From: Chloroflexota bacterium
Lineage (GTDB): Bacteria; Chloroflexota; Chloroflexia; Chloroflexales; Herpetosiphonaceae
Direction: 5' to 3'
DNA length: 64,000 bases
Assembly (NCBI GenBank): GCA_020161265.1
Contig: JAIUOC010000003.1
Coordinates: forward strand, 299,024 to 363,023
In this document: piece by piece, positions 10,035-58,330 of the stretch
How the letters are laid out: each line of letters begins with the position of its first letter
How positions within the stretch are numbered: the first letter of the stretch is position 1
Position numbers and translations under genes: made by a program
The notes under the pieces: model-generated
The model's database searches: none
Seen by the model: only the letters and a program-made list of their open reading frames with translations
Told to the model about the DNA's origin: nothing

Positions 10035-12119
10035 CTAGCGCAACGCAAAGAAGCCAAGCACGATCACCACACCGATCACAAACATCAGTGCATACGAGCG
10101 TACATAGCCCGATTGGAACGTTCGCAAGCCGCGACCCGACAAGCCGACAAGCTCTGCCGTGCCATTAACGATGCCATCAATAATTTTGACATCGAAGAAC
10201 TTACCAAAGAAGCTAGCCAAGGCCTTGTAGGGCTTGACCAAAACCGCGTTGTACAACGCATCAAAGCCCCATTTTTCCTCAAGGATGGCATAGAAATCGC
10301 CGCCCCAGTGGTGCAACAGGTCGCGTTGGTTGGGCTTGATCCGTTTGTGCTTGGCTGCCCAATTGTAGAGATAGAAGCCTGCGGCAAACGATGCCAAGCC
10401 TAAGATCGTTACAATTGCGGCGATGTTGAGGTGGAACTTAGCAGCTTCTTCTTCGACGATTGGCTCAAGCCATGTGGTTAATGGATGCCAGCCAGGAACG
10501 TTGATCAAACCACTGGCGAGGGTCAAGCCTGCCAAAATCCACAATGGAATCGTCATCCAGCGGCTGCTTTCGTGGGCATGAATGTGCTGATCACGTTGTT
10601 CGCCAAAGAAGACCATTGAGATTTGGCGGCCCATGTAGAACGAAGTCAAGACTGCGCCCAACACCAACAGCATGCCAACTGTGCGATGGTCGTGATCAAA
10701 GGCATGGCCGATGATTTCATCTTTCGACCAAAAACCCGAAACCAAGGGGAAGCCGATCAAGCCCATCGTCCCAACAATATATGTCCAGAAGGTGGCGGGC
10801 ATTTTCTTGCGCAGACCGCCCATCTTGCGCATATCTTGCTCGTTGCCAAAGCCATGAATCACTGAGCCAGAGCCAAGGAACAAGAGCGCCTTGAAAATCC
10901 CGTGGGTCAGCAGGTGGAACATCGCGGCAACGTATGCTCCCATGCCCACGGCTGCCACCATAAAGCCCAATTGCGAGACGGTCGAGAAGGCCAGAACCTT
11001 CTTGATATCGTATTGACCGAGCGCAATTGAAGCAGCGACCAAAGCGGTAGCAACCCCAATAAAGGTTACAGTGCTTTGAACCGATGGCGATAATTCAAAG
11101 ATTGGATGGGTGCGGATCATCAAATACACGCCAGCGGTAACCATGGTTGCGGCGTGAATCAAGGCCGAAACAGGGGTTGGGCCAGCCATTGCATCGGGCA
11201 ACCAGACAAACAGCGGAATTTGCGCCGATTTACCAGTTACGCCAAGCAACAGCATAAAGGCAATCGCCCCAGCCGCCGTGTATTGCGTGCCCATAAAGAA
11301 GGTGCTGTATTGTTGCAGCGAGAAGACCGTCCCTTGCTCCAAGACTTCGCGGAAGACCAATGAATGCAAGAAGGTACCATCGGGTTTACGCGCCAAGGCC
11401 CAAATTGCAAACATCGCCATCAACAAGCCAAAGTCGCCAACCCGGTTGGTTACAAAAGCTTTGACTGAAGCCCATGGTGGGTCGCGTTGTTCAAACCAGA
11501 AGCCAATCAGCAAGAACGAACACAAGCCCACGCCTTCCCAACCTAAGAAAAGCATCACAAAGTTGTTGCCCATGACGAGCATCAACATTGCCACAATAAA
11601 TAAGTTGAGGTAGACGAAAAAGCGGGTAGGCCGTTCATCGTGGCTCATATAGCCTACGGCATAGAGGTGAATTAACGTCCCTACGCCAGTGACCAAGAGC
11701 ATCATCGTGACCGAAAGTTGGTCGATCAAGAAACCAAAAGGAACTTCCAAATCGCCAAAGGCCATCCAGTTCCAATAGGTTACATCGAACCAACGATTAT
11801 TTTCGCCCAATGTGGTTGTGGCAGGCATACCCAGCAACTCAATCAGAGTTGCGACGGTCAGCACAAAGCCCAAACCAACCATGACGCTGGCAATCAAGCC
11901 AGAGCGTTTAGCGGTGGGATTATCGCCATGTCCATGGTGCGCGTCACCGTGGCCATGCCCGTGATCATGCCCATGGTCGTGGTGGGCGTTGGCGCGACTG
12001 AGACGCAAATCGTTCAGCCCCAACAGAGTATTGATCACGACACCGAGCAGTGGCAGCAACGGCACAAGCCAAATTAATTCCGCCATAAGTTCTCCAGTAG
12101 ACACTTCGGCAAGGTGCAA
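10035..12119 (-). CDS. nuoL: NADH-quinone oxidoreductase subunit L, with a His-rich N-proximal insertion
   Basis: 694-aa antiporter-like subunit, e.g. 'WLPDAMAGPTPVSALIHAATMVTAGVY'. Contains 'HHDHGHDHGHGHGDAHHGHG' near the N-terminus. Confidence 0.9.
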   Translation of the reverse strand: MHLAEVSTGELMAELIWLVPLLPLLGVVINTLLGLNDLRLSRANAHHDHGHDHGHGHGDAHHGHGDNPTAKRSGLIASVMVGLGFVLTVATLIELLGMPATTTLGENNRWFDVTYWNWMAFGDLEVPFGFLIDQLSVTMMLLVTGVGTLIHLYAVGYMSHDERPTRFFVYLNLFIVAMLMLVMGNNFVMLFLGWEGVGLCSFLLIGFWFEQRDPPWASVKAFVTNRVGDFGLLMAMFAIWALARKPDGTFLHSLVFREVLEQGTVFSLQQYSTFFMGTQYTAAGAIAFMLLLGVTGKSAQIPLFVWLPDAMAGPTPVSALIHAATMVTAGVYLMIRTHPIFELSPSVQSTVTFIGVATALVAASIALGQYDIKKVLAFSTVSQLGFMVAAVGMGAYVAAMFHLLTHGIFKALLFLGSGSVIHGFGNEQDMRKMGGLRKKMPATFWTYIVGTMGLIGFPLVSGFWSKDEIIGHAFDHDHRTVGMLLVLGAVLTSFYMGRQISMVFFGEQRDQHIHAHESSRWMTIPLWILAGLTLASGLINVPGWHPLTTWLEPIVEEEAAKFHLNIAAIVTILGLASFAAGFYLYNWAAKHKRIKPNQRDLLHHWGGDFYAILEEKWGFDALYNAVLVKPYKALASFFGKFFDVKIIDGIVNGTAELVGLSGRGLRTFQSGYVRSYALMFVIGVVIVLGFFALR

Positions 12120-13638: not shown

Positions 13639-13986
13639 TGGCGATTCCTTTCTCGGTGCGTGACTCCTATGGCGTTCACGCCAAAACCGCCACTATGCAT
13701 CAAGCGGCGGTGCAATGTCATTCGAATCGGTGCCGTCGCGGGCGCGTTTATTTTATCACAATCTCTTGATAAGCCAAACAGGGGGAATAAGGATGAAGGA
13801 TGAATTATGAGGGATGAAATTAAGAACATAGAACATAGGGCGATCGGCGTTTGGCTTTGGGCGATTGGCTATCGGAACGTTGTGTGGTATGACACTCATT
13901 CGCGATAGCCAATCGCCTATAGCCTATAGCCTTTTGTCACATCTTCGTGCGCTTCGTGGATCAAAATATCCCAAATCCTCGATGTT

Positions 13987-15195
13987 CTAGGCTAGAGTTT
14001 CTTGCTCATTCCAACCAGCAAAAGGATCATCGATTTGCCAAGTTGCGGCTGGTTGTTGCCATTCGTGATCGCTGACCAAACATGCATCCAACGCTTGTTG
14101 CAACCATTGTTGATCAAAATCTTGGCCAATAAAGACTAGTTCTTGGCGACGATCACCAACTTGCTCATCCCATAGGGCTTCAATTTCGGCACGTTCCTCG
14201 GCAGTTTCGGGCCATTCGCTCTGATCGCTATCGGCCCACCACTCGCCAGCTGGCTCAACACGGCAATTTTGGCCTGCTTGCGAGAGTAATCCAGCGGTTG
14301 TGGGCTGTGAAATTACCCAAAAGAAGCCTTTGGCGCGAATCACTCCAGGCCAATCGTTATTCACAAACTCCCAAAAACGTTGAGCTGCAAATGGCCGTCG
14401 AGCACGATACACCCAACTGCGAATGCCATATTCCTCGGTTTCGGGTGTATGTTCACCACGCAATTCGGCCAGTCAGCCAGGTGCAGCGCTCGCTTGATCA
14501 AAATCAAACAAGCCAGTATTCAGAATTTCGCTGAGTGGCACTTGACCATGCTGGGCATGAATAATCTTGGCCTGCGGATTGAGTTTATTTAGCAATTCGT
14601 GTAAATGAGTTAATTGTTCAGCACTGATTAAATCAGTTTTATTAATGATCAACACATTGCAAAACTCAATCTGATCGATCAATAAATCGACCAAGGTGCG
14701 CTCATCAGCCTCGTCAATTGCCAAATCACGGTCGCGCAAATCGTGGGCAGCATTGAAATCGTGCAAGAAATTGAGGGCATCAACCACCGTCACCATCGTA
14801 TCGAGTTGAGCAATTTCGCCCAAACTGAGGCCTGATTCATCTTCGAAGGTAAAGGTTTCGGCTACGGGCAATGGCTCCGAAATGCCTGTCGATTCGATCA
14901 ACAGATAATCGAAACGGCCAGCACGAGCCAACTTACCGACCTCAAGCAGCAGATCTTCACGTAAGGTACAGCAAATACAACCATTGCTTAACTCGATCAA
15001 TTGTTCTTCGACCCGATTGAGCGCAAGCTCGCCTTGACCTACCAACCGCGCATCGATATTAACTTCGCTCATATCGTTGACGATGACGGCGACCCGCAAA
15101 CCCTCGCGATTGGCCAAAATATGATTTAATAAGGTGGTTTTCCCCGCACCGAGAAACCCAGAAAGTACAGTTACAGGCAGCGGCAACTTCGACAT
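13987..15195 (-). pseudogene. COG0523/CobW-family G3E GTPase (metallochaperone) interrupted by an in-frame TGA. The N-terminal GTPase part is 14473-15195 and the CobW_C part is 13987-14463.
   Basis: P-loop '[11 protein letters not shown]' and a 'CICCTL' metal motif are in the upstream ORF. The downstream ORF, in the same frame, carries a CobW_C-like 'EEYGIRSWVYRARRPF'. The two are separated only by TGA at 14473-14475 plus 3 sense codons. Confidence 0.55.
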
Positions 15196-15340
15196 TTGGC
15201 TTTAATCCTTATTTATTGATACCATGTATCATTATAATCGATTTTTGAATTCGTCAAGCAGCGTTTGACAAAACGACCAAAGCGGAGTATACTTCAGCAC
15301 TGTTGAACGGCAAAATCGCCCAAAACACACAACTATATAA

Positions 15341-15416
15341 TCCCTGATAGCTCAGTTGGTAGAGCAATTGACTGTTAATCAATGGGTCCTAGGTTCGAGT
15401 CCTAGTCAGGGAGCCA
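15341..15416 (+). tRNA. tRNA-Asn (anticodon GTT)
   Basis: Cloverleaf read by hand: acceptor tccctga/tcaggga, D-arm gctcagttggtagagc, anticodon loop cuGUUaa, T-arm ggttcgagtcc, encoded CCA. Confidence 0.85.
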
Positions 15417-15436: not shown

Positions 15437-15512
15437 TCCCTGATAGCTCAGTTGGTAGAGCGGTTGACTGTTAATCAGCATGTCCTAGGTTCGAGTCCTA
15501 GTCAGGGAGCCA
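15437..15512 (+). tRNA. tRNA-Asn (anticodon GTT), second tandem copy
   Basis: Near-identical to the first copy, differing only in the anticodon stem and variable loop. Encoded CCA. Confidence 0.85.
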
Positions 15513-15833: not shown

Positions 15834-16100
15834 CTAGTTAGTCTGCTGAAGTTGGGCCAGTTCTACTTTTTTAGGATAAAAAAGTCCAACGGGTTCATTA
15901 TCTGGCACTTGTACCAGTAAATCACCAGGTGAAACTTCAAGAATTGAGCAAATCTTATCTAAGATTGGCAGGTCTACGCGTGTCGTATAACCACGATACA
16001 AACCTTTTGCAGTGTTATACGAGATATCAGCTCGATCTGCCAGATCTTGAATAGATAACCCTTTTTCTTCTGCAAATCTTCCCACGTTTAATACGATCAT
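15834..16100 (-). CDS. XRE (Cro/CI-type) HTH transcriptional regulator
   Basis: 88 aa with an HTH_3-like 'LSIQDLADRADISYNTAKGLYRG'. Confidence 0.8.
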   Translation of the reverse strand: MIVLNVGRFAEEKGLSIQDLADRADISYNTAKGLYRGYTTRVDLPILDKICSILEVSPGDLLVQVPDNEPVGLFYPKKVELAQLQQTN

Positions 16101-16176
16101 AAAGACCCCCTGTAACTTGGCCGTAAGTCTATTAGATCTGTTTTATTTTATCAACTTTTATTCTTTTCGACTTGTT

Positions 16177-16250
16177 GCCATTAGGTTGCTCCATTTTATA
16201 ATTTCAACTTTTCGACTTGTTGAAATTATAAAATGGAGCAACCTAATGGC
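16177..16250. promoter_or_regulatory. Perfect 32-bp inverted repeat (arms 16177-16208 and 16219-16250, 10-nt spacer) overlapping the RBS and ATG of the downstream gene. Candidate operator.
   Basis: gccattaggttgctccattttataatttcaac is the exact reverse complement of gttgaaattataaaatggagcaacctaatggc. A direct 13-mer ttttcgacttgtt precedes each arm. Confidence 0.5.
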
Positions 16251-16743
16251 ACACACAAAAGCGGTCACCTATAACTTCAAGAATCGGGATTTCGATGCGT
16301 CCGTGAACGGCGAGTACATTGGCTCATTCCCAACCGATCTGGATGCACGAATGGCCTGCAATCGTTTAGTGTTGGAATTGATTGAGTTGGATAATCGGGC
16401 TGTTGAGGAAGCTGAAGAAGTAATGGCCATTGGCGTGGTTGAACCCGTTGCCGAAGCTAGCGCTGAGGTTGCTTTGTTTGAAGTCGTCGATCTGATTCCC
16501 ATGCCTGTGGTTACCGCCACGACCTATGCCAACACCCCTATTGATGCGCTTGCCCGCACCATGGTCATTTTGAGCCGCAACTGGCAACGGGCGATTCGCG
16601 CAGGTCGGTATACTGATGCCGAGCGGATTGAAGCTCATGAACAGGCCGTCCGCAGCCAATTCCGCTCCCTCTCCTGTCCTGCATTGCCACCCACGTCTGC
16701 TACTCAGCAGTGCCCAACGACCAGTCGCCAGATTAACTATTAA
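16246..16743 (+). CDS. Hypothetical protein (islet cargo)
   Basis: ORF with GGAG RBS 9 nt upstream of ATG 16246. No recognisable motif. Confidence 0.5.
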   Translation: MAHTKAVTYNFKNRDFDASVNGEYIGSFPTDLDARMACNRLVLELIELDNRAVEEAEEVMAIGVVEPVAEASAEVALFEVVDLIPMPVVTATTYANTPIDALARTMVILSRNWQRAIRAGRYTDAERIEAHEQAVRSQFRSLSCPALPPTSATQQCPTTSRQINY

Positions 16744-16833
16744 ACCCTTCACTGCTCTTCAAAGCAGCAAAGGGCCTCACATGACCGAGGTGCAGACTGC
16801 AACCTAGCCTCGGTCACGAAAGGATGATACCTG

Positions 16834-17151
16834 ATGTCACAGACCCATGTCAATCACGACCGCTGCCAACGCTTGGCGCGTGCCAGTGCGATTGTTCAAC
16901 TGGCTACTATTATTCAGGAAGAAGAAGGCCTCGACGACAACACCGCCTACACGCTGGCTGAACACGAACTCGATGCCATCGCTGTGACCGAAGCGGCATG
17001 GAGCGAACCGCAACCCCTCGCCATGCTTCGTATCCTGCCAACAGCGTGGGGGATCGTGCTGGTGCGCAACGGTTCGCGCGTGGTCGTACATCGTGCCGAT
17101 ATTCCGGCGGTGCTGGAATCCTTGACCCGTTGGGCTGCTGTATCCTATTAA
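16834..17151 (+). CDS. Hypothetical protein
   Basis: 105-aa ORF with no motif. Confidence 0.4.
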   Translation: MSQTHVNHDRCQRLARASAIVQLATIIQEEEGLDDNTAYTLAEHELDAIAVTEAAWSEPQPLAMLRILPTAWGIVLVRNGSRVVVHRADIPAVLESLTRWAAVSY

Positions 17152-17174
17152 TAGATATAGCGAGGACTATTGTT

Positions 17175-17534
17175 ATGGCTGATACTGCATCACCGCTCGC
17201 AAGCATCAAAGTGGAGCACCAGATTCACTTCACCCTTGATGGCTTTCCTTGCACCACCTCGGTGGCAGGTGCGACCGCCGATCAACTCAAAGTCGTGATT
17301 GATCGCCTCAAAGCGATCGGAGCACAACCACCCACGACACACCCAGCTCAACCAACCCAACCAGTCGCCGCTGCTGCACCACCCAGTGCTCCCGCCCAAC
17401 GCCTCTGCCCAACCCATGGTTCGCCCTTGCAGTTACGCCAAGGCACGCGACGCGGTGGCAAGCCCTACAAATTTTGGAGCTGCAACCATACCGATGCGGA
17501 TGGCAACTGGTGTGATCATACCGAGAAGCCGTAG
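17175..17534 (+). CDS. Hypothetical protein with a C-terminal zinc-ribbon-like motif
   Basis: 'CPTHGSPL...FWSCNHTDADGNWC' resembles a small C4/C3H zinc ribbon. Pro/Ala-rich linker. Confidence 0.4.
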   Translation: MADTASPLASIKVEHQIHFTLDGFPCTTSVAGATADQLKVVIDRLKAIGAQPPTTHPAQPTQPVAAAAPPSAPAQRLCPTHGSPLQLRQGTRRGGKPYKFWSCNHTDADGNWCDHTEKP

Positions 17535-17696
17535 TGGAGGGTATTCATGGAATTAACCGCTGCGGCGATTCGTCGCTATGTGACCACCCGCTTGGCCACG
17601 CACATTGCTGACATACACGCGCTCCCTAGTCCACATCCTGAATGGGATGTTGGGTATCTTGATCAGTAAGTCTCTAGGAATAGCAGATGTCACTCC

Positions 17697-18002
17697 CTAA
17701 CTCTGAGCGTCATCCAGCAGTATTCTGCTCCATTCCAGAAGCTGTTGGCGACCAGATTCGCCGACCAACTTCTCGCTGATTGCTAAGCGAACAACCTGCC
17801 GCCGAACCGCTTCAAGGACAACATCATGATAGTGGTTCACGATCCATTTGTGCCAGTCCTCGGGTGTGGTCTGATTATCAGCAAGGTGGATAAGAAAGGC
17901 GGCAAATTCCTGGCGGTACGATGTGGACATAAACAGCCTCCAGGGCGGCACCGCCACCCAGTTCTGGGGATATGACACCCGCAGCGTCGGGAGGGGAGCC
18001 AT
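17697..18002 (-). CDS. Hypothetical protein
   Basis: ORF only. The start is uncertain. Confidence 0.3.
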   Translation of the reverse strand: MAPLPTLRVSYPQNWVAVPPWRLFMSTSYRQEFAAFLIHLADNQTTPEDWHKWIVNHYHDVVLEAVRRQVVRLAISEKLVGESGRQQLLEWSRILLDDAQS

Positions 18003-18725
18003 TGTTCGGTATGCTTGGACGGACCACCAACCAAGCTTTACTGCCCAAGGAGACTCCCCTCATGAACACGTTGCCAGCCTTGACCAGTCAACGTATTTTA
18101 AATGATACCATGGCCCTGCTCCAGACCTATATCCCACTTCAAGCCACAGGCTATCGCTGCCAGACAGCCTATGGGACGGCCTTGAGCGATCTGGCAGCAT
18201 AGATACGAGAGACCCTCGATGAACCCCTGCCGCCCCTCGTTGATCGCGAAGCCGATGGGCTGGCTATCGCGATTGACTGACTGATGATGGATGACCAGCC
18301 AGCAGTTCAAATCAGGCTGTTGGCGAATGTTTTTTTAGCGCGAAACGGTTATGATAATGGATATTGTCGCACATGGTCGGTATCGACCTGCTACCCCATA
18401 TGATGTTTAACGCGACACGTTCGCACCCCGTACTCAATTCCATGCCCCAGGCACCGCCGTTAAATCCACCCCAACCCCCGCACGATGGCCAGCAGAAGGA
18501 GTTTCCAGCTGTGGCCAAGCAACTGCGCGGACGATGGCACAACATCGCCAAACTGCACTAGCCATGTGACCCAAGAGTTGATTGGGTTGCAACTCCTCAG
18601 CACTGGCATACGTACACACCGCAGTGATACCAAGATTCCGTGTTGCACCAATCCAACTGGAGTGTCTGTCAGGTGAAAACGATACGTAGGCCCCAACAAA
18701 TAATCTTATTAGAGGAGAGACCCCT

Positions 18726-20152: not shown

Positions 20153-23100
20153 CTATCGATTTATAACATATGGAATATAGACATAATTAATTGGATCGAC
20201 TGGAATGACGTAGATTTGCGTATCGGTGAGAATCGCTGGCTGTGGAATACCCGTCCGATCACTGGCTTGGGCTGCACCTAAAGCGAAGTTTAGGCTGCCA
20301 GGGTTGGTAGCACGTAAGGTAATTGTGGCTAGTTGTCCATTGCCTGATGCTCCAACGGGGCTAGTACCGATGCTATAGGCTGCAAAATTAAGCGTTCCCC
20401 TGACCAGATCGATCTGCGGCCCGATCGGATAAAATTGACGACCACTGCTACTTGGATAGCCATCAATGGTAGCGTTGAGGATTTCGAGCTTGCTTGGGCT
20501 AAATGGTAGTGTGAACTCGAAAGAACCAAGATCATTGACATCACTAATTACTACTCCAATGGTAAATGGGACTCCAACTTGAATTGGCGCTTTGGTTGGC
20601 TGTAAACTAAATGTGGTGGGCCATGGCGTTGCAGTTGATGTCAAGGTTGGCCGTGGAGCAGAACACTGAGTTCCCCAACGCACCGCTACTCTCTGAATGT
20701 CGATAATATCGATATCGCCATCAGCATCAATATCATAAAGTGGCGCATAGAGTGGGTCGCCGAGGTGTGTATTCCAGCGGTAGGAGATTCGCTGGATGTC
20801 GATGATATCAACATCACCATCAAGATCAAAATCGCCAAGGCAGTTGGCAACCTGAATCGATCCATTGCGAGTTGCGACTGTAATTGCCTGACCATTGATA
20901 TTGCTGACCTGAACATTACTGAAGGTGAGCGGTGCTGTGCCAACCGCCCGAGGACGCAACCGGATATGGGCAAGCGAACCCTGGCCACTCGCGCCTGCTG
21001 GATTCGCCCCAAGACTAAAGCCGCCAAAGGTTATCGTCCCTGCATTTGGATTGATCGTCGGCCCAACGGGGGTAAAGTTGCGGCCAGTACTAGCAGGAAA
21101 TGCCCCCATAGTAACTTGCTCAACCGTTACAAGCGCTGGGCTATACGCTAGCGTAAACTGGAACGAGCCAAGTTGCTGAATTTGCGAGATTGCCACTGTG
21201 GCCGTAATTGCTTGCTCTAAACCTCCAGATAATGCTGGTGGCGACAGATAGACCAGTGGTTGATTACTAGGTGGCGCAAGCACAGTAATATAGTTTGGCT
21301 TAACAATTGTGTTGGAGCCACCAGGGCCATCGACGAGCAAGCGCACTGCATAGGTGCCTGGTTGGGTGTAGGTATGGATTGGATTTGGAATGCTGTCCTC
21401 GCCGCCATCACCAAAATCCCAACGTCTACTAGCGATTGTTCCACTTGATTGATCGCTGAAGCTGACGGTAAGCGGCGCGACACCAGTCAGTGGAGTTGCC
21501 CCAAAGTCTGGCGTTGGTGGCAATTGATCCGCCATCAAGGTACGTTCCTCAAGGGCAATTTCGTTAATAAATGCCCCAGTTGTGCCATTTGTGCGCACTA
21601 TGCTGACGATGATGCTCTCATCACTAACATAGGCACTCTGGGGGATATCAAGGACAGGGCGCTGAACTTGGAAATTACCAGTATTAATTGGTGACCCTAG
21701 CTCAATGCCATCAATCTGGACTTTTTGAATCCGCTCGCTTCCGTCACGCTGCCAAAAACTCGTATGCAGTTGATAGCGTCGATCACGCTTGAGTCCATCG
21801 AAGCGATAGCGCAATGTAGCATCACTTTGATCGATTCGAACACTCTGATAGGGCAGGGTTCCCCAGATACTATTGCGAACTCCATCGAGCGCACCAAAGC
21901 TTAATCCACTGCTTGGGGTGGTTCCTGGATAACCAACCTCGGTAAGTGAACCAGCATCAATATAACGATAATCGATTGGATGCAAGCTCACATAGGCAAC
22001 AACTGCACCGTCAATACCTGGCGCTTCTATGCTAACCTCAATTTTACGATCAGCGTATAATGCTGGATCAATTCGCGTTGAAAGCCGTTGAATTTGGCCA
22101 TTGGCAAGGCTTACTGGCCCAACAATAGGATTACCATCAACGTTAATCACTTCCTGTCGGCCAACACCATCGCACTCAAAGAGCGTAATATCAAGATGAT
22201 AGAACCGTCCAGGCTGAAGTTGATCAAACTGATAGCGTACCTGCCCATCGGGATCGATTCGAACAGTTTGGTGTGGTGCTGAACCACAACTACTGATCGT
22301 ATCAGGCTCTCCGATATCAATCACTCCATAGCCAAGGCTCGGCGTATAGGTTGCCTCGCTAGCTGCGCCACTATCCAGATGGATTGGGCCATTGATGCCT
22401 ACGGCAATCGGTTGCCACAACGTGTTGTTGGCTTCGTTGGATTCAGATATCTCGGCTTGGCTATCGATGCTTGCAGTTAATTGATACAAACCAAACTGGG
22501 TTGGAGTCCATGGAAGTACAAGGGTTGTGGTGCTGGCAGCAGTTAGCATGGGGATGCTTTGGCTGCTAATGATCGCACCTGTTTGGCCCGTTGCGCCTAC
22601 CATTAAGCGTAGATCATGCCTACCTGCGGTTGTTTGACCAGCATTGTGAACTTGAATTGTTACGCTGATCGGCTGGCCAATCAATGGCTCTGAATCAGAA
22701 AACTGAATCCGGCTAACCTGAAGATCGGCGCGGGTTCGAATCGGTAGGGTTGCTGTTACCACATTATTGGTCTCGTTAATCTCTGCTACCCGATCGAATG
22801 GGTCTACCACGACCCGAACCGGAATTGTTCCTTGAAAACCTTCGGTTGGGAATGGAATCGATACTAAGGCATCGCCACCTGCCGGAATATTGGCAACAAA
22901 TCGACTGCCTAGGTACCAATCGCCAAAAATTGGTGATTTGGCGTAGACACTGGTAATAAATCCGCCGGTGGCTAGATTGCTTGGGTTGCGAATGCGGGCT
23001 TGGAGCTGAGCCTGCATGCCCTCAGTTGGGTTACTAGGATTTAAACTTAGCTCATGGGCTGCCAAACCTAGCTCGGTAGCACCGCCTGGGGTTGCAACGA

Positions 23101-26100
23101 GATTGAGCATATGCAGTTGTCCACTGGTATTGAGTGAAATTCGAATGGGTACGCTGACCATCCCTTGGGCATCAGGTGTTGCCGATGCCATGAAACTTGT
23201 CAGGCCAGCAGCGAGGTTGGTGGTTGAGAGAGTGGTTGGCAAGGTTGGCGAGTTGTTATAGCTCCACTCCCAATTGCCATTATTGCCAATATCGAGATTG
23301 ATTTGCAAGAAAGCGGCGTTCGATCTGGTTATGAGCAGATCGAGAGTTGTAGTGAGATAGCGAGCTTTTGGCAAACTAACGTGGATAACCTGTTCGCCAG
23401 CGCTGCTGAATTGGATTGTTCGCCCACTTTGCACATGGTAGCGTTGACGATCACGGAATGCTGTTGGGATATAGAGATTAATTTGGTGTGGGCTACCAGC
23501 AACTTTTTCGATGCTAAATGCCAGCATGCCAAAATGAGCAGTCGCGGTTGCGCCTGCAACGAGGTTAACGTTCACTGAGCTAGCACTCGTTGCCGCATAT
23601 CCATTGGGTAGGGTTGCATTAACGGTATAGGCAGCTGCCGTAAGATTGGTAAAACTATAAGCGCCTTGGGCATCGGTAACGCTGGTTTGTCCGGTTCCGC
23701 TCAGCGCAACATTAATGCCGGCAAGGCCATTCTCCCCAGGATTTTGGATTCCATTTTGATTAAGATCATGGAATACAATTCCGCTAATGCTTGCTTGCGG
23801 AATGAGCGCAAGATTAACCGTGGTTGTCGTGTTTGATTGAACCGTTACGCTGTTGGTACACGAATTACTACAAGCGTATCCAGCTTTTGGGGTAACAGTG
23901 AGGCTATAGGTTGCTGGCGGCACGTTGTTAAAGTTATAGTCGCCATTCGCATTCGTTGTAGCCGTCCCAACTGTATTTAAATTGATGTTAATCGTTGCCA
24001 ATCCTGCTTCACCAGGATCACGCACGCCATTTGCATTATTATCACTATAGACGCTGCCCGCAAGTGTGCCATAACAACCAAGCTGGGCTTGATTAGGTGC
24101 TGGAACGATATTCTCAATCCCAGTTACTGTATTGCAATACTCAAGCCGAATTGAGCCATGGCCACCAGCACCACCAATAAATCGTCCGCTTGGGCTGCCT
24201 GGTGGCACTAGTTGTGGTGCGCCGAGTGCGTTGATCCCATTCGCCGCTACCGATATCGTATCAGCGCGAAGATACATTTGCCCACCGCCGCCAGAGCCAG
24301 CAGCCACACGCCGATTGGTGCCATCATCGGACATAGTGCCATTTGCTTGCTGCCCATTGGCCCGAATCTGGCCAGTGATTGTGAGTTGACGGGCAAAAAT
24401 AAACACCAATCCACCGCCGCGTCCAGCCTGCGAATAGCCAGCGCCAGGGTTGATGCTGGTAGCACTCCCACCGCCACCGCCACCAAAATAGAGTCGTGTG
24501 CCATCGGTTGTACAGTGACCAATGCCACCGCGACCCCATGTACTGCCGCCAATATGTTCACCATCGCCTCCGGCTGCACAACCAGCGCCACCGCCGCCAC
24601 CACCAATCGCATCGGCAGCACCACCGCCTTGGGCCGATGGCGTGATGTTGGGGGTTTGGCAATAATGCGTGCTATTATTCGACGTGCAGATAATCCCTTC
24701 ACCCTGCCACTGATCAGTTTGATAACCATTGCCACTATCTCCACCACGAAAGCCGCTGGCATCGCCATTGATCAGCCCGCCGATTGTGGCATTATTTTGA
24801 CACATAAAGGCGATAATCCCACCAACGTGACCATTCCAAGCCAGCAAGGGTGTGATTGTGCCGCTGACTGGGCAATCGCTGTATTGTGGCACGCGCATAA
24901 TTTGGGCTTGGGCACGGTAGTCAATCGAGCTATAACTATGGCGCAAGGGTTGAGCTAAAGCAAAGGTTCCACTCCCAGTAACATCGCCAACTGCGGTATT
25001 GAGTTCCCACAAACCAGCAATTGAAGGGTCACCGCGAGTCTGATGAATCAATACTCGATCGCCGGGATTAATGCGCGAAACTGCATGCTGATCGACAATC
25101 GTAATCGCGGTTGAGCCAGCATTGCCACTGGCTATCCCAATACCAACGCCATTACTGGTATCAAGATTGCCATTTGCTGGCATGATGCCATCGCGACCAT
25201 CACCATAGCGATCGGTTAGATTCGTGGGCTGAGGTGTTGCCAGCGCAAGGCGAGCCTGCCGGAGGTTAACAACAATTCCCTGTAATAGCCCACGGCCAAT
25301 CCCAAGCAGGGTTTGTTGGCTTTGATCATAGAGACGGAGTGGTGTGACATGCAGTGCATCGCTAACAATTGTATCAACATAGGAAATGAGCTCACGTTGA
25401 GATCGCGAACCAGTTACCACAACATACTCATCCCAAGGCCGATATGGGCTGATCGGGAGCGCTTGGGCTGGCGTGGTTGGAGCTACGATGACACCCTGAA
25501 CTTGCAGGTTGTGGCTCGGACGTTGAGGATCACTAGTCCGTAGTTGAATGGTGCGACTGAACGGCCCAACCGGGATATAATAGGTGTCCAGAAGTACCTC
25601 AAGTATGCCCATATCACCAGCCGCAATCGTTGTGGTGGGCCGTGATTGGCTTGTAACCGGTATTCCTGAGACTTCCACATGGGCTTGGAATTGCCCAATG
25701 GTATCGGTATTACAGCCGAGACAGTTGTTGGTTGCTAAATACAGTCGCCCACTTGTGGAGCTGGCTGCGCGATAGCTGGTTCCTGCCATAAATGGCGTAT
25801 TATTGCCAACTCGGGCAATCAGGCTGAATTGACTTGCTCCAGGGGCTGTCCATCCGCTAGCTGCGTCTACTCCGTTGCCATCAGGCCCAAAGCAATTTGT
25901 ACTACTGTCATAACAGATATTGCCAGTTGCCTGAATACCAATTGCATCCCCATGACGAACCTCAAGGCCTGTATCCATCCAGCTAATTTCACCAGAAATT
26001 GCCAGATCACGTCGCCCTCCAGCGCCTAAAAGGGTGGTGCGCAAGCCAGCACGGCCCTCGTTGGGCAAGCCAAAGTTATGGCGAAGTTGACTGCCTTGGG

Positions 26101-29100
26101 TTGCCGTCCCAAAATTCCAAACCGATTCAGCGGTATTGATTGCAAATATTGGCTGCGGGTCGGCTTGGAAGGTATCGAGCATTCGCGCTGAGTTTCCAAG
26201 GATATTGCCCTGATGATCGGTTAGAAAGGCAATAACACCATAACGATGGTTGGGATTAAATGCTGGATTGAAGTCGGCAGCTTGCCACGTGATATTAACC
26301 AAATTTGGCCCTGGTTGGAGATTGACTGAACGAGCCTCTTCGCGAACGACTCCACCTTGACCATTCAGATCAATGAATTCAAGATACAGTCGTGCATTAA
26401 TAAAGCTCTCTACTGCCGGAATTTGGGCCAACAAAGTGGTAGTTTGTTGTAAGGCTGGCGTAAATGGTGCGGTTGCGATGATCTCAACACCCGCACTATC
26501 ATGCAGCATTTGGCCGCTGTAGGGTGCAAGGTTTGCTTGAGGATGACTTAACTCAGACGTGGTAACCAAGCGATGATGACCTTGTGGATCGTTGTAGGCG
26601 AGAATTACTAAGGGTTTTGTATATGGCTCACGGTTGATTCGATAGCTAAAGGCATCATTGGGCGGAGTTGCTACAATCTTAAAGGTTTGGTTATGTTGAA
26701 CTGTGCCGCTCATCAGCGCCAGTTCAAGCCCTTGGCCCCCGACACCTAGGCGTTGGGGTGATGCATAGCCTGCACCAAAGTTGAGGCTGCCAGTATTGCC
26801 TATGCCATCATTCCAGTGTAATGCCCATGTTCCGCTGCCAACGTCGCAGCCTAAGGGAGCCGAACATTGAACGGTAAAGAGATATTCACGTTCGTTTGCA
26901 CCAACATAATAGCCAGCAGTTGTGGGAAGCGCCGTACCCGACCATGAACTGGAGAGGCTAGGTTGATGGATCGTACTGCCAACCACGACTTGATGGAATG
27001 CGCGAACGCGGCCTGTACCACCAACAGTATTATTTTGGATCGTCACCGAATCATTTGGCGCAACCATAATCGCCTGAACACTATAGGCATCGTATAGCCC
27101 AGTGTTGAGCAGCGATAGCGTACTTGTAACAACATTGCCAACCCGCGTCGAATGGGTTGCCGCAAGCAGTTCAGGCTTTGGAAATGAGCTAGCATTGTGC
27201 GGATCAGTTTGGAGCCGAAGCTCATCACTATCACTATAGCCATCAAGATCACTATCTTGATTAAAGCGAAATAATGCCCCAGCAGCTGGTGCGGCTGCCA
27301 TATCTTGAAAACCCAAATCGCCATTGCCAAGCCCGCCAGAGTAAATATTCCACCACTCGGCAGCTGAAAGTGCATGTTGACACCACAGGATTGCTCCAAC
27401 TCGACGTGGTAAACGACACCAACTAGGGCTATCAGTGCGCCGTTCAGGAGTCCAAACCGCTATTAATTGACCATTCGCATCGGTTGTTGTGGGAAAGTAG
27501 CGAGCTAATACATCAAAGGCTGTTTCATCACCCCAGGTTGGAATCAAGAAATCCTCGATTAGCTCATCGTTATCGGCAGTTCCATCTTCAATTGCAATCG
27601 TCATGCTTGCATTGAGTGCATCCGCATAAAACAACTCATCAATGCCATAAGTATAGTCTTCGGCCACGATTCGAATTGGCGAACCAAGATCGATCGCACG
27701 TAATTGGTCGAGGGTTAGTGCAATTCGACGAGACGTGTATTGATGCGACTCACCTGGCATGAAGTTGTGAAACTTGCCATCGCCGCCGAGATCTGGCCCA
27801 ACAAAATAGGTTGTTGCTGGAATCGGACTGTCACCGATATATACGTTGAAAGCGAGATTGCCAATTTCGCGGGCATATTCGCTGCCATTATTGCTCACGC
27901 GATAGCTAAACCAGAGTTCAGCGGCATGAGCCGAATTGACCGCAACAGCATTGCTCCACGATTCACCCGACGAAAATGCTTGACCATTCGTAACGGTATG
28001 TTCTTTATATTGAGTATGGGTGGTTGTTTGCGCACCACCGCGTGATTGCCCTTTGGCGCTCGTCGTTGTTTGGGTGGGAACCTGCTGTGGGTAACTGAAT
28101 TGATAATATTGCTCGACAACGGCGCGAGCATCACTCGTGGCTCCACTATGCAGGTGGTTACCAACACTTCGGCCTTGGCTTATTTGTGATGTGCGTTGAC
28201 TATTGACGGTTTGTTGGGAGCTGGCAGGGGTTCCAACTTTGCTGCTACAGCCAGGCACACATTGATTCGCCTGCTGCTTGAGTTGTTTAATCTCAGTTTG
28301 AAGTTGGCGTAAGGTTTGAGCCGATTGTTGGGCTTCATTACGATTGACAACATAGTCGCCATAGGCAGTTGCAAACCCAATTGTGCCTACAGCAATAGCC
28401 GACGCAAGGGTAATCCCAGCACAAAGTGGTGCTGTTGCCAAACAAAGCCCTGCCGCAGTTACACTGATTGCCCCACTCGTAATTGCTAGCCCAATCTTTT
28501 GGCGATCCCAGGCTTCGGTGGTGGGAGCCCGGGGCAATATACCGAATGTTGGTGGCAAATAACGGCCAGCAAGCGGAATGGTCGTTGCAATCGATTGCTC
28601 CTCCCAGGCGTTCCAGTTTACTTCATTGGCAATGCTCGAACTCGTGCCTTCGGTACTTGCCGTGCTATAAAGCCGCTCGGTTCCCGTAATAATGGTGTGA
28701 TCAGTGCGAATTTCGGTGACGGTTTGCACTCGCAGCGAGTTTGGTACTAAATCAATCGCTGGGACTGGGAAGGCTGCCATTAATGGGTGATTGGCTGGAG
28801 TTTTAACCCATGCAGGCATTTCGGCAAAGATAATGCCCCAATCCTCGTTGCGAGGTAATGCGCCATAGCCACAAAATCCACCACTGCCAGGGCAATAGGT
28901 GCTGCCAAAAAGCTCTTGTCCATCATCAAATTTATCGCGGTCGGTTGATTCGCGATTCATGTTCAGCCCCAAATCCCAACGCTCAGCGAGATCGGGGATG
29001 GAATCTAAATCGTCGTCACGACAGTTTGCAAGCTGGCTAGGCCAGCCAGCGAATGGTTTACCATTTGCTGGTGGGCTGCTTCGTTCGTGGCGCATCCAGC

Positions 29101-29701
29101 TACGGGCGGCCTGAACTTCGCTACCATCATGTTCACCATCGCCATCGGTATCGGGCATAAGTGGATTGGTACACCACCATTGCTCTTGGGTATTTGTCAA
29201 GCCATCATTATCATCATCAATACTCGAGCCACTAGCGATGGCAGCTGTTTGTTCAGGCCGCAGTTGTTGCATTTGGGTATACAGCAACGAACGATTGGCT
29301 TTTGAAGGTGTTTTGGCAACTACCTTGGCGGCCTCAAAGAGCGGTTCAAGGGTTGCTACGAGTGTAGGTGGGCTAGCGGTGTGTTTGAGTAGTTCAGAGA
29401 GCCCATTGGTTTCAGTTGGGCCAAAACCCAGTCGCGCAAGTTTATCGAGCATGAGTTCATCAACTAATACAAGCAGCCGATCTGCTTCTTCATGTAAGAT
29501 GCGTAGATCAAACTGTTGTAAACGCTGTTTTGTATAATCAGTTGGCTGATAGAGCACTGTTCGATAGAGAATACTGCCATCATTTGGTATTGTGGATGGC
29601 ACAGGCTGTAGACCATAGACATCAGCAGTTGGCCAATAGGTTGAGAGCAGGCTGCATAGCAATAGTAGTGCGAGTAGGCGGCGATTAAGGCGGTTTCGCA
29701 T
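20153..29701 (-). CDS. Giant (3182 aa) secreted multidomain surface protein (PKD, Cna-B/SdrD-like, CARDB-like, Gly-rich and dockerin-like modules)
   Basis: Signal peptide 'MRNRLNRRLLALLLLCSLL'. PKD-like 'WDFGDGG..S..NP.HTY..PGTY'. SdrD/Cna-B-like 'GSVYSDNNANGVRDPGEAGLA' repeats. CARDB-like 'DLQVSRIQFSD'. Gly-rich block. C-terminal paired 'DLDGDVDIIDIQRISYRW / DIDADGDIDIIDIQRVAVRW' dockerin-like repeats. Confidence 0.8.
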   Translation of the reverse strand: MRNRLNRRLLALLLLCSLLSTYWPTADVYGLQPVPSTIPNDGSILYRTVLYQPTDYTKQRLQQFDLRILHEEADRLLVLVDELMLDKLARLGFGPTETNGLSELLKHTASPPTLVATLEPLFEAAKVVAKTPSKANRSLLYTQMQQLRPEQTAAIASGSSIDDDNDGLTNTQEQWWCTNPLMPDTDGDGEHDGSEVQAARSWMRHERSSPPANGKPFAGWPSQLANCRDDDLDSIPDLAERWDLGLNMNRESTDRDKFDDGQELFGSTYCPGSGGFCGYGALPRNEDWGIIFAEMPAWVKTPANHPLMAAFPVPAIDLVPNSLRVQTVTEIRTDHTIITGTERLYSTASTEGTSSSIANEVNWNAWEEQSIATTIPLAGRYLPPTFGILPRAPTTEAWDRQKIGLAITSGAISVTAAGLCLATAPLCAGITLASAIAVGTIGFATAYGDYVVNRNEAQQSAQTLRQLQTEIKQLKQQANQCVPGCSSKVGTPASSQQTVNSQRTSQISQGRSVGNHLHSGATSDARAVVEQYYQFSYPQQVPTQTTTSAKGQSRGGAQTTTHTQYKEHTVTNGQAFSSGESWSNAVAVNSAHAAELWFSYRVSNNGSEYAREIGNLAFNVYIGDSPIPATTYFVGPDLGGDGKFHNFMPGESHQYTSRRIALTLDQLRAIDLGSPIRIVAEDYTYGIDELFYADALNASMTIAIEDGTADNDELIEDFLIPTWGDETAFDVLARYFPTTTDANGQLIAVWTPERRTDSPSWCRLPRRVGAILWCQHALSAAEWWNIYSGGLGNGDLGFQDMAAAPAAGALFRFNQDSDLDGYSDSDELRLQTDPHNASSFPKPELLAATHSTRVGNVVTSTLSLLNTGLYDAYSVQAIMVAPNDSVTIQNNTVGGTGRVRAFHQVVVGSTIHQPSLSSSWSGTALPTTAGYYVGANEREYLFTVQCSAPLGCDVGSGTWALHWNDGIGNTGSLNFGAGYASPQRLGVGGQGLELALMSGTVQHNQTFKIVATPPNDAFSYRINREPYTKPLVILAYNDPQGHHRLVTTSELSHPQANLAPYSGQMLHDSAGVEIIATAPFTPALQQTTTLLAQIPAVESFINARLYLEFIDLNGQGGVVREEARSVNLQPGPNLVNITWQAADFNPAFNPNHRYGVIAFLTDHQGNILGNSARMLDTFQADPQPIFAINTAESVWNFGTATQGSQLRHNFGLPNEGRAGLRTTLLGAGGRRDLAISGEISWMDTGLEVRHGDAIGIQATGNICYDSSTNCFGPDGNGVDAASGWTAPGASQFSLIARVGNNTPFMAGTSYRAASSTSGRLYLATNNCLGCNTDTIGQFQAHVEVSGIPVTSQSRPTTTIAAGDMGILEVLLDTYYIPVGPFSRTIQLRTSDPQRPSHNLQVQGVIVAPTTPAQALPISPYRPWDEYVVVTGSRSQRELISYVDTIVSDALHVTPLRLYDQSQQTLLGIGRGLLQGIVVNLRQARLALATPQPTNLTDRYGDGRDGIMPANGNLDTSNGVGIGIASGNAGSTAITIVDQHAVSRINPGDRVLIHQTRGDPSIAGLWELNTAVGDVTGSGTFALAQPLRHSYSSIDYRAQAQIMRVPQYSDCPVSGTITPLLAWNGHVGGIIAFMCQNNATIGGLINGDASGFRGGDSGNGYQTDQWQGEGIICTSNNSTHYCQTPNITPSAQGGGAADAIGGGGGGAGCAAGGDGEHIGGSTWGRGGIGHCTTDGTRLYFGGGGGGSATSINPGAGYSQAGRGGGLVFIFARQLTITGQIRANGQQANGTMSDDGTNRRVAAGSGGGGQMYLRADTISVAANGINALGAPQLVPPGSPSGRFIGGAGGHGSIRLEYCNTVTGIENIVPAPNQAQLGCYGTLAGSVYSDNNANGVRDPGEAGLATININLNTVGTATTNANGDYNFNNVPPATYSLTVTPKAGYACSNSCTNSVTVQSNTTTTVNLALIPQASISGIVFHDLNQNGIQNPGENGLAGINVALSGTGQTSVTDAQGAYSFTNLTAAAYTVNATLPNGYAATSASSVNVNLVAGATATAHFGMLAFSIEKVAGSPHQINLYIPTAFRDRQRYHVQSGRTIQFSSAGEQVIHVSLPKARYLTTTLDLLITRSNAAFLQINLDIGNNGNWEWSYNNSPTLPTTLSTTNLAAGLTSFMASATPDAQGMVSVPIRISLNTSGQLHMLNLVATPGGATELGLAAHELSLNPSNPTEGMQAQLQARIRNPSNLATGGFITSVYAKSPIFGDWYLGSRFVANIPAGGDALVSIPFPTEGFQGTIPVRVVVDPFDRVAEINETNNVVTATLPIRTRADLQVSRIQFSDSEPLIGQPISVTIQVHNAGQTTAGRHDLRLMVGATGQTGAIISSQSIPMLTAASTTTLVLPWTPTQFGLYQLTASIDSQAEISESNEANNTLWQPIAVGINGPIHLDSGAASEATYTPSLGYGVIDIGEPDTISSCGSAPHQTVRIDPDGQVRYQFDQLQPGRFYHLDITLFECDGVGRQEVINVDGNPIVGPVSLANGQIQRLSTRIDPALYADRKIEVSIEAPGIDGAVVAYVSLHPIDYRYIDAGSLTEVGYPGTTPSSGLSFGALDGVRNSIWGTLPYQSVRIDQSDATLRYRFDGLKRDRRYQLHTSFWQRDGSERIQKVQIDGIELGSPINTGNFQVQRPVLDIPQSAYVSDESIIVSIVRTNGTTGAFINEIALEERTLMADQLPPTPDFGATPLTGVAPLTVSFSDQSSGTIASRRWDFGDGGEDSIPNPIHTYTQPGTYAVRLLVDGPGGSNTIVKPNYITVLAPPSNQPLVYLSPPALSGGLEQAITATVAISQIQQLGSFQFTLAYSPALVTVEQVTMGAFPASTGRNFTPVGPTINPNAGTITFGGFSLGANPAGASGQGSLAHIRLRPRAVGTAPLTFSNVQVSNINGQAITVATRNGSIQVANCLGDFDLDGDVDIIDIQRISYRWNTHLGDPLYAPLYDIDADGDIDIIDIQRVAVRWGTQCSAPRPTLTSTATPWPTTFSLQPTKAPIQVGVPFTIGVVISDVNDLGSFEFTLPFSPSKLEILNATIDGYPSSSGRQFYPIGPQIDLVRGTLNFAAYSIGTSPVGASGNGQLATITLRATNPGSLNFALGAAQASDRTGIPQPAILTDTQIYVIPVDPINYVYIPYVINR

Positions 29702-32819: not shown

Positions 32820-35800
32820 TTATCGATTAATCAGCGGCAGATAGATCGGCTGGCTTTGGTTGATCATAAGATTATCGAGCAGCCAGCCACGATCTGATCC
32901 GTCGCGGTCAACGGTCATGCGCAACCGTAAACGAATGGTTTGATTCTGAAATGAACGTAGGGAGATTCTGACTGGTTTCCAATGAGGAGTTGACCATTCA
33001 TCGCTGCTTGGGGTTGCTGGGCGTAGGCCATGTGCGCCGCCGCCAGTGAAATCGGCGATGATCTGCCAGGTTAGGCCATTATCGGTTGAAACTTCCACAC
33101 TCCCATGATCATCGCCTGCTGCGGTTCGGGCAAACACGTAATCGTGCTCGAAGGAAAGCACTGGATGCTGACAATTAGCTAGGTTAATTGGCTCGTGGAA
33201 GGTTAGGGTACTTGTCAGATATTGATTTGGTGCGACGGCTTGGGCATAGGCATGGCCCGGGCTATCATCAAGGGCAACCTCGCCACTCGCTAAGCGCGAT
33301 GTAGCCCAAGTTCCTTGAATTTGCCATTTGCCCAATTGGCTATTAAATGTTTCAGCAAAACATGCAGGTGTTGGTGGGTAAAGGGCGAGTGCTGGTGCTG
33401 GTACGCTTGACCCATCACCATTGGTTAAGCTCGTTCGGTAATAACCTGGGGCAAGTGCAGCGGTTAGGGTTATGCTGCCACTGCTGGAGTTATGCAATGT
33501 AACGCTTAAACTGATCGTGCTGGTTAGCGTTTGCAAGTGAAGTGTTGCTGGTGCCAGTAAGTTGTTGCCGCTTACCAGCAATGTGTTGGTAAGCCCACTG
33601 GTGATCATGGTTGGTGTTAAACTTTGAACGCTTGGCTGCGAATGCCCACCTATTAATGTATAGATGCCTGGCTTTGGCGCATGAGCCGCGGCAACATTAT
33701 AGGTTGTGTTCAAAACGGTCGATAAACGCTCCCAATAGGTTCCATTCCAAAAGCCAATCGCTAAATCTGGCTCTTCAACATTGGCTGTAATCAGATCATA
33801 ACCAAGATATTGAAAACTAACTGAGCCTGAAATTGGTTGGGTTTGTTGGGCGGTAACGAGTTGATAGCCTTGCCCCACGTTTACCACCCCTGCTGGTAAA
33901 GCCGGAAGTTCGGCCATCTCTTGAATCGCATAAAATTGGCCAACTTCAAAGGTCGCTTTGGTATAGAAGGTCATCTGTCCATCGGGAGATAGTAACGGTG
34001 CACCACCCAACCGATAGTAACCGCCACCACCGCGATAGTAACCGCCACCACCGCGATAGTAACCGCCACCACCGCGATAGTAGCCTGGGTTTCCGCCAAT
34101 TGAGTAGGCGATAAGTGTTTCGCGGCGTGGGTTTGTCTCACTTGCTGGCTCTTCAACCCATACTTGAATATGGCCACTCATCGAGGGATATTGGCTTACC
34201 AAGCTTCCACGGTAGCCATCGCCAAAATGCTCAAGCAGTACTGGTGAACCAGCCGATCCATCATCAGGAAAGAGCCGTGCTTGTAAACTTAAGCCTGGTT
34301 GAATTCCAGTTACCTGAAGTTTGAGGGTTGTGCTGGTAACTGGCGAGAGCGTTACGAGTGGTTTCCAAGCAGCATCATGCTTAAGCGTAATATATTGATC
34401 ATCGATGCTCAACACTTCACAACCAAAGTGTTGTGTGCCACGATCAAAAAGACAAAACCGATCGCCCGGCTGTGCCCCTCGGCCTAAGATGCGGTTTTGA
34501 TTGTTGACAGTACTGCCCAGAGGCATAATCGTATCGTCAGTTAGAGCTGGGGTCTGCTGGTTTGTAATCAAGAATCCGCGAGCTTTGGCTGAACTGGTTG
34601 TATTACCAGCATATTCTAAGTATAAGGTAGGATCAACCAAAGGAGTGGTAGGAGTCAAGGGGTCAACGATTTGCACATTCGTGAAGACGAAAGGCATTTG
34701 TTGTGGCCCAGCCAGCGGCATAGTCGGAGTTATCAGTGCCGGATACCAAAGCCGAAGTGTTTCCCATTCAGTTCGTTTTAACTCCTGCGCTGCGAGGGTT
34801 TCCTGACAGTGTGCTTGCCACACCTCAGGATCAAAGACAAATTCGGTATTTGTTGGAAGATACACATCACCCATCGCGCTTCCCGCGCATGTATCCACCG
34901 GAACCAAGAGCTGATCTGCTTGGATTCCAAGGTAAGTGTCTTCCATGAAAAATAAATAATGGCTTAATTCATGGGCAAGAATAACCGACCAATCAGTGCT
35001 AATATCTTCGCCAGGAATTCCATTGCGATTCCAGTGGGAACCAATATGCACTTGTCCTATATCGTAGATCACCTCAGGATGTTCAAGATCAAGGGTTTTG
35101 GTTAAGACGATTCCGCCCTCGCTGGCGAAAGGTCGGAGCCGATTTGTTGCATGGATCACAACATCGGCATAATTGAGTTGCTCTCCATTCTGGTAGACGC
35201 TTATTTTTCCTAAGGCTACCTGGCCATTAGTAAAGTCATAGAGATAGCGTGAAGCGCGATGGAGATCTGACTCAAGTTTTTGCAGGTAGGTGGGGGAGTG
35301 TGATGCATCCCATTCGAGCGCAATTTTCAAGTTAAAGAGCAATAATGGATGTTCTGGTCGCGCAATCAACTCTTGCGTGCCGGGCGTGGTGATCGTCCAA
35401 CCATCCAAGCCCATCTCAGTAGGAACCCCATTTGTATGATAAAGGCTGTAGGCATAGGTTGTTGTAATTGGCACAAGGGCGATTAAGCGATCATCTGGCC
35501 GTAATTCGCTTTGGCCTTGCAAGTAGCCTTGACCATCGGTAATAAATGGCGCACTGCCCTGACTTGCTGCCATAGGCCGCCCACCGCCGCTTTGACCTGC
35601 GCCTAGTCGGTAGACGATTGCTCCTGCCGCAGCGATTGGTGGTTGCTCGGCGGTGGCATGCAGCACCCGCACGCCTGTGCCACGCACTCGGAATGGAAAT
35701 GAGTTCGTTGTATAGGCTCCATAACGATAGCTACCAGCAGTACTATGCGCCTGAGGCAGTACACTAGGATACATTCGAAGCTGAACCGCCATTGTATCGT

Positions 35801-57076: not shown

Positions 57077-57110
57077 TATTATTCGAGTAGAATTTAACGA
57101 AGGAAACCCT

Positions 57111-57500: not shown

Positions 57501-57548
57501 CAGCAACACAGGGCATCGATATGATTTGATCGGTGCCCTGCATTTAAT

Positions 57549-58307: not shown

Positions 58308-58330
58308 TGGGCTACTCCTTCAAGCAAATG

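Follow-up and report, generated by a model that had tools for sequence, protein, structure and literature searches.

A Herpetosiphon strain (Chloroflexota) carries a zinc metallochaperone gene, zigA, that is interrupted by a single in-frame TGA codon and is most probably a young loss-of-function or strongly hypomorphic allele, that is, a nascent pseudogene. The locus lies in the window (the whole stretch of DNA that was analysed, 64,000 nucleotides long) and is an orthologue of zigA, which encodes a COG0523 subfamily 1 zinc metallochaperone GTPase. The TGA change is real in the DNA, and the locus is an ordinary strain-specific nonsense allele of a known gene, with no new mechanism. The allele suggests that one of the chaperones used by this strain under zinc limitation was recently lost or impaired, possibly because zinc is plentiful where the strain grows or because paralogues are redundant with it.

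Structure of the interrupted zigA gene

The two ORFs that make up the gene, and the motifs found in them, are listed below in the direction of reading.

14473-15195 (including the stop), minus strand: ORF1, 240 aa, with an ATG start and a TGA end
14476-15195, minus strand: coding part of ORF1, codons 1-240 of zigA, a complete G3E GTPase (G) domain
15136-15159, minus strand: P-loop GFLGAGKT, in ORF1
14968-14979, minus strand: CxCC zinc site CICC (C73-I-C-C76), in ORF1
14884-14895, minus strand: ESTG, in ORF1
14632-14643, minus strand: NKTD, in ORF1
14473-14475, minus strand: premature in-frame TGA at codon 241 (plus-strand letters TCA)
13990-14472, minus strand: zigA codons 242-402, linker and CobW_C, 161 codons in an open frame with zero indels
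14461-14463, minus strand: TTG at codon 245, the only in-frame start-type codon near the stop
13987-14463, minus strand: ORF2, 158 aa from the TTG, with a TAG stop at 13987-13989
14428-14445, minus strand: PETEEY linker motif, residues 251-256, 3' of the TGA
14326-14337, minus strand: RxKG arginine-finger motif RAKG (R287-A-K289-G290), 3' of the TGA in CobW_C

The first-pass annotation had described a 240-aa GTPase ORF and a 158-aa CobW_C ORF that share one frame (15195-14463 = 732 = 3 x 244), with TGA at 14473-14475 and then CTG-GCC-GAA between ORF1 and the TTG of ORF2, and every one of these details was confirmed. Its placement of the split between the GTPase and CobW_C domains was likewise borne out, as ORF1 matched PF02492 (cobW/HypB/UreG; E 5e-57) and ORF2 matched PF07683 (CobW_C; E 5e-28) in Pfam. 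The proposed COG0523/CobW-type metallochaperone could be identified more precisely as ZigA. The NCBIfam model NF038288 (zinc metallochaperone GTPase ZigA), with an equivalog cut-off of 600 bits, was matched at 630 bits only by the 402-aa conceptual read-through product with W at position 241, while this product scored far under each cut-off of the CobW, YjiA-type, MRF and CobW-related selenoprotein models. The G1, G3 and G4 motifs of a G3E P-loop GTPase were all found in ORF1, and the residues of the CxCC site (C73-I-C-C76) were invariant in the 56-sequence alignment used for the structure model described below. The adjacency of ORF1 and ORF2 is far from a chance juxtaposition, and the window gene departs from the family in that its two domains are not joined in one uninterrupted polypeptide, the frame being broken by TGA at codon 241. 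Both ORFs should be annotated as one disrupted zigA (pseudogene or nonsense allele) rather than as a GTPase and a separate 'CobW_C domain protein'.

Thousands of full-length homologues were obtained by searching a collection of 5.8 billion proteins. An alignment of 131 full-length homologues, all of them uninterrupted, had W in the column of the stop in every sequence (131/131), and this column was embedded in a near-invariant block (A-P-G-W-L-x-E-L-R-G-E-H-x-P-E). The 90%-identity cluster that includes both window ORFs also contained intact proteins of 398-402 aa, all with W241. Intact W241 proteins are encoded by Herpetosiphon aurantiacus DSM 785 (ABX03287/WP_012188195), H. gulosus, H. giganteus, H. 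geysericola, H. llansteffanensis and Herpetosiphon sp. NSE202, and this cluster membership assigns the source of the window to Herpetosiphon. Each of the seven Herpetosiphon orthologue DNAs compared had TGG as codon 241. Across the gene, the closest of these (L081) is 93.5% identical to the window; 69 of the differences are synonymous and 10, among them the stop, are non-synonymous. Because TGG is present in all seven orthologues, including the closest, the lesion is a single G-to-A transition on the coding strand at window position 14473 (TGG to TGA), in agreement with the earlier suggestion that the stop is one transition away from a Trp codon. As judged from this comparison, the ancestral codon 241 is TGG (Trp). 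Orthologues that end at this position and are followed by a separate downstream gene, which the first-pass annotation had named as the observation that would speak against its reading, were not seen; the split arrangement was absent from relatives, with every named Herpetosiphon species having a single protein of 398-402 aa.

Reality, decoding and age of the stop codon

The exact 240-aa and 158-aa products were also recorded in JGI metagenome 3300003765 (contig Ga0056911_1001020), and the exact truncated products were found again in a 604,596-bp JGI contig and in the Logan assembly of SRR5422910, the contig of which was recorded in three samples. The window was 100% identical to Ga0056911_1001020 over 4606 nt and to the SRR5422910 Logan contig over 1613 nt. 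Random sequencing error is unlikely because different assemblers and libraries reproduce the same base, although the JGI and Logan data may stem from one culture, community or strain and so exclude random error rather than a mutation acquired in the laboratory. When all six frames were scanned for two open stretches, each 90 codons or longer, parted by one stop, no other broken gene was detected in the 64-kb window. A region at 57072-58319 (minus strand) was considered as a second broken gene and rejected, since it consists of a complete 252-aa methyltransferase gene ending in TAG and then a 159-codon in-frame stretch without a domain. Of the 39 remaining long ORFs in the window, eight (nuoJ among them) end in TGA, which indicates that the standard genetic code is used. 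Reassignment of the code (table 4/25, with TGA read as Trp or Gly) was rejected on the basis of this stop-codon usage and of the lack of any other interrupted gene.

These observations bear on the three options that the first-pass annotation had left side by side, namely a recent nonsense mutation, a sequencing error and a programmed event. If the true base gave TGG and the gene were intact, a sequencing or assembly error of just one single-base substitution would be needed, but the identical TGA in Ga0056911_1001020, in the 604,596-bp JGI contig and in the SRR5422910 Logan assembly, produced by different assemblers, and the intactness of all other genes in the 64 kb make this explanation very unlikely. 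Programmed recoding, in which the UGA would be decoded as selenocysteine, as Trp by a reassigned code or via regulated read-through, has some features in its favour. In E. coli no stop is leakier than UGA, for which Trp-tRNATrp competes with RF2 (PMC10570021; PMC5373646), and decoding of this kind would put back the very residue that was ancestral. Over the 81 nt that start at the stop, the window folds somewhat better than shuffled sequences (-27.5 kcal/mol, z -1.98, 10 of 200 shuffles as good). However, the TGA is unique to the window lineage, with TGG in the relatives and nothing conserved, and the hairpin is not conserved in the seven orthologues, which gave different folds and z values from -2.2 to +2.1. 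TGA is also the ordinary terminator of the eight other window genes noted above, and the position is an invariant Trp rather than the Cys that selenocysteine usually replaces. A selenoprotein gene was rejected on similar grounds, with a score of 50 bits against a cut-off of 180 for NF041053 (CobW-related selenoprotein) and no conserved downstream hairpin. Programmed recoding is therefore considered extremely improbable. Among the three options, the recent nonsense mutation was supported, the sequencing error was weakened by the recurrence of the TGA in the JGI and SRR5422910 data, and the programmed event was not supported, given the lack of conservation of both the TGA and the downstream RNA structure and the use of TGA as a normal stop.

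The gene was disrupted relative to its intact orthologues (TGA against TGG in 7/7), with no indels relative to any orthologue compared. In comparisons of the window with seven intact genes, codons 1-240 gave dN/dS (Nei-Gojobori) values of 0.010-0.055 and codons 242-402 values of 0.022-0.047; these values were indistinguishable from those between intact genes (0.015-0.065). Eleven nucleotides in zigA were unique to the window lineage: the stop itself, nine changes that are synonymous and one, at the variable residue 400, that is not. As one or fewer non-synonymous changes out of 10 would be rare under neutrality (P ~4e-5), most of the window branch evolved under constraint. Three of the window-specific changes lie 3' of the stop (two synonymous and one non-synonymous, P = 0.17), a number that provides no power to detect relaxed selection. 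No signs of decay (relaxed selection, indels, further stops or promoter loss) were detected in window zigA, with low power for the part 3' of the stop. The mutation is regarded as young because indels are absent, the promoter is unchanged and dN/dS 3' of the stop resembles that of intact genes; its age is bounded loosely, as the nearest intact allele is ~6.5% divergent and there is no isogenic TGG reference. Taken from the sequence comparisons, this pattern points to a lesion that is young, or to two halves that may both still be useful.

Probable consequences of the break and the possibility of two polypeptides

An AF2 model of an intact protein (P0001, 99% identical), built from a 56-sequence alignment and with a mean pLDDT of 75, contained two confident domains joined by a segment with pLDDT <50 (residues 239-258). 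The last G-domain helices of the model cover residues 232-245, with confidence below 50 from residue 239. As the low-confidence segment spans residues 239-258, the stop is predicted to fall right where the flexible linker between the domains begins.

The function of the part beyond the stop is known from A. baumannii ZigA, in which the C-terminal domain (CTD) is a built-in GAP that acts via an invariant RxKG arginine finger (Rocchio et al. 2026, PMC13001444). The R293A and K295A variants have GTPase activity at or below detection and resemble the deletion strain under TPEN, while linker residue E258, located in the PETEEY motif that is specific to SSN cluster 1 (ZigA, ZagA and Nha3), gates zinc dependence (PMC13001444). 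A purified AbZigA 'linker-core CTD' (residues 246-409) rescues the RxK mutants in trans with a Km of 1.7 uM (PMC13001444). R293 of AbZigA corresponds to R287 in the window protein, and the distance from the Trp to RxKG is equal in Acinetobacter homologues. With this anchor and no difference in Trp-RxKG length, the numbering offset is +6 and AbZigA residue 246 corresponds to residue 240 here, so that the natural break would coincide with the boundary of the experimental linker-core CTD construct.

In the favoured reading of a young nonsense allele, a single G-to-A change has turned the TGG of the invariant Trp-241 into TGA, and standard decoding would end after G240 to give a 240-aa G-domain that retains the P-loop together with the CxCC zinc site and the G3 and G4 motifs. 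Such a product could bind zinc and GTP, and would be without the PETEEY gating linker, the C-terminal domain and the arginine finger. It is expected to be both GTPase-dead and chaperone-dead because the RxK mutants of ZigA are analogous, and the allele would probably have lost GTPase and chaperone activity. A near-cognate Trp-tRNA reading the UGA could restore the ancestral residue and supply some wild-type protein at low yield. The base after the TGA is C, and Poole et al. (1995) reportedly ranked the resulting four-base context, UGA-C, with the weakest such stops of E. coli.

The location of the break also raises the question of a functional split gene, in which the G-domain (residues 1-240) and a linker-CTD re-initiated at TTG-245 would associate non-covalently and the arginine finger would be supplied in trans. 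The break at the start of a flexible linker (pLDDT <50 over 239-258) and its match to the N-terminus of the AbZigA fragment 246-409, which is active in trans with a Km of 1.7 uM (PMC13001444), speak for such an arrangement. ORF2 is fully intact and under purifying selection, an intact frame being equally expected of a functional split, and the TTG is located 7 nt past the stop, within reach of termination-reinitiation. TTG-245 is plausibly the only point at which a separate linker-CTD polypeptide could be re-initiated. However, TTG is a weak start, this one is buried in a predicted hairpin and the 30 nt 5' of it (GCGAGCGCTGCACCTGGCTGACTGGCCGAA) contain no Shine-Dalgarno-like sequence. A compensatory origin of the TTG as a new start was rejected, as TTG-245 is also present in the intact gene of DSM 785. 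Further points against a split gene are that the arrangement is absent from relatives, that the in-trans experiments used a full-length mutant and excess CTD rather than an isolated G-domain, and that the CTD-only sequences inspected elsewhere were pseudogene relics and not two-gene systems. A functional split gene is thus judged unlikely. The broader claim that the TGA allele is alive, with a 27-kDa Zn/GTP-binding G-domain and an 18-kDa linker-CTD working as a GTPase/GAP pair, perhaps helped by low Trp read-through, is held to be distinctly unlikely. If true, it would provide a natural counterpart of in-vitro trans-gapping and a step in evolution towards a GTPase and a GAP encoded by separate genes. 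Since the break falls at the G-domain/linker boundary, where published in-vitro work has taken the halves apart and recombined them, the strain could offer a natural system in which to ask if a COG0523 chaperone functions when made as two chains.

The frequency of comparable lesions was assessed from a HMMER scan of 1.84 billion representatives with ORF2, which returned many short CTD-only entries, several of them beginning exactly with 'MRGEH'. A low-GC metagenome contig (L092) contained a ZigA homologue with an in-frame TAG at 472-474, five codons 5' of the Trp codon. The sequence at this site reads FDFEQA, the stop and then QAPGWLKEMRGEH, and the break is an independent one in the same linker. 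A second locus (L093, 2390-2989) contained a 162-aa CTD-only ORF with a GTG start at 'VRGSH', which is a relic of a COG0523 paralogue; a frameshifting deletion took nearly the whole G-domain and left AAEAPGWLREV on the 3' side of the junction. This ORF lies between COG0523 genes of 326 aa and 409 aa and was present on six contigs. Established stand-alone linker-CTD genes were rejected as an explanation of the short entries, since the CTD-only loci inspected (L092 and L093) are broken genes, and no established two-gene ZigA system was found among the ORF2 HMMER matches inspected. Disrupted COG0523 genes are not rare, which fits ordinary gene decay. A separate entry, P0247 (ENA ERZ27296333), is a 151-aa CTD-only gene starting with 'MRGEHVPETEQFGI' and located directly upstream of a FUR-family regulator gene. 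No G-domain gene was called beside it, and it could be either a genuine stand-alone CTD or one more relic.

Genomic context and comparison with known systems

The region upstream of zigA contains the following features.

15217-15231, no strand: palindrome TGATAC-ATG-GTATCA, between the -10 element and the start codon, present in all eight upstream regions
15228-15257, minus strand: sigma-70-like promoter of zigA, TTGACG ... TATAAT/AATGAT, almost invariant in eight Herpetosiphon sequences
15265-15293, plus strand: strong promoter-like site TTGACA-17-TATACT, the divergent promoter of the tRNA-Asn pair
15341-15416 and 15437-15512, plus strand: two tandem tRNA-Asn(GTT) genes, divergent from zigA

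The zigA promoter, the palindrome and the divergent tRNA-Asn promoter were essentially invariant across the eight sequences compared. Subfamily-1 COG0523 genes have been linked to Zur sites (PMC2770081). The palindrome overlaps the zigA promoter and is a candidate operator for a Fur-family (Zur) regulator. Exact copies were not found elsewhere in the window, where 2-mismatch copies occurred only at chance level, and no zur gene is present in the window. We know of no Zur motif for Chloroflexota. An Rfam scan of the window detected the two tRNAs and nothing else. Short-read contigs end at the tRNA-Asn pair.

Several other features of the window were recorded. Upstream of the tRNA-Asn pair lies a gene for a small HTH_26 (Cro/C1-type) regulator (15834-16100, minus strand), next to which is a block of short ORFs without domains (16100-18200). 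This block varies among Herpetosiphon genomes, with differing HTH_26 counts and an AAA_15/AAA_21 ATPase in H. gulosus, and looks like a variable islet beside the tRNA-Asn genes. Two giant predicted surface proteins are encoded at 20153-29701 and 32820-38393 (both minus strand), one of 3182 aa with SdrD_B, CARDB, PKD and cohesin domains and the other of 1857 aa made up of FG-GAP repeats. They flank a gene for a 923-aa NB-ARC/NACHT-TPR STAND NTPase (30014-32785, plus strand). On the other side of zigA, the spacer between zigA and nuoI contains a 44-nt imperfect inverted repeat (13831-13874 and 13903-13946) with the core GGCGATTGGCTATCG / CGATAGCCAATCGCC. A related inverted-repeat element is located downstream of zigA in L081, and the repeat may be a REP-like or terminator element. 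The NuoL protein (10035-12119, minus strand) has, in its N-terminal part, a His-rich loop, HHDHGHDHGHGHGDAHHGHGD, after its first transmembrane helix. Three other Herpetosiphon loci encode the identical loop and H. geysericola a nearly identical one; it is possibly a metal-binding feature of complex I, encoded ~2 kb from zigA.

The nearest comparison for the window gene is with intact Herpetosiphon zigA, which has 96-98% protein identity and shares with it the promoter, the palindrome and, upstream, the divergent tRNA-Asn pair, but differs in that codon 241 is TGG and one 402-aa protein is made. Downstream of zigA, DSM 785 has genes for DUF2071 and a glycosyltransferase, whereas the window has nuoI. 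With respect to decoding, near-cognate Trp-tRNATrp reads through UGA in E. coli (nudL is an example); the stop is the same, and the inserted residue is Trp, the ancestral one here. This read-through was described in E. coli K-12 with its weak RF2, whereas the host of the window gene is a Herpetosiphon, and the expected yield is low.

To our knowledge, E. coli YjiA is the only COG0523 protein with a solved structure. YjiA (PDB 1NIJ/4IXM) was the only PDB match (E 4e-27, residues 5-234) and shares the G-domain fold and the CxCC motif with the window protein. It belongs to another subfamily, is without the PETEEY linker and has a shorter CTD.

The closest characterised system is A. baumannii ZigA (NF038288, SSN cluster 1), which has the same two-domain architecture, with a PETEEY linker joining a CxCC-bearing G3E GTPase to an RxKG-bearing CobW_C domain. 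The read-through product is ~60% identical to Acinetobacter homologues among the matches listed in a scan of genome contigs, all of which were at 65% identity or less. The frame of A. baumannii ZigA is uninterrupted, whereas in window zigA a TGA replaces the invariant Trp codon where the linker begins, and the hosts also differ, window zigA belonging to a Chloroflexota predator and ZigA to a proteobacterial pathogen. The in-vitro 'trans-gapping' of ZigA/MigC (PMC13001444) is similar in that the CTD construct starts at AbZigA residue 246 and the natural break is at residues 240/241. Those experiments combined purified CTD in excess with full-length RxK mutants, whereas the CTD of the window gene would first have to be translated.
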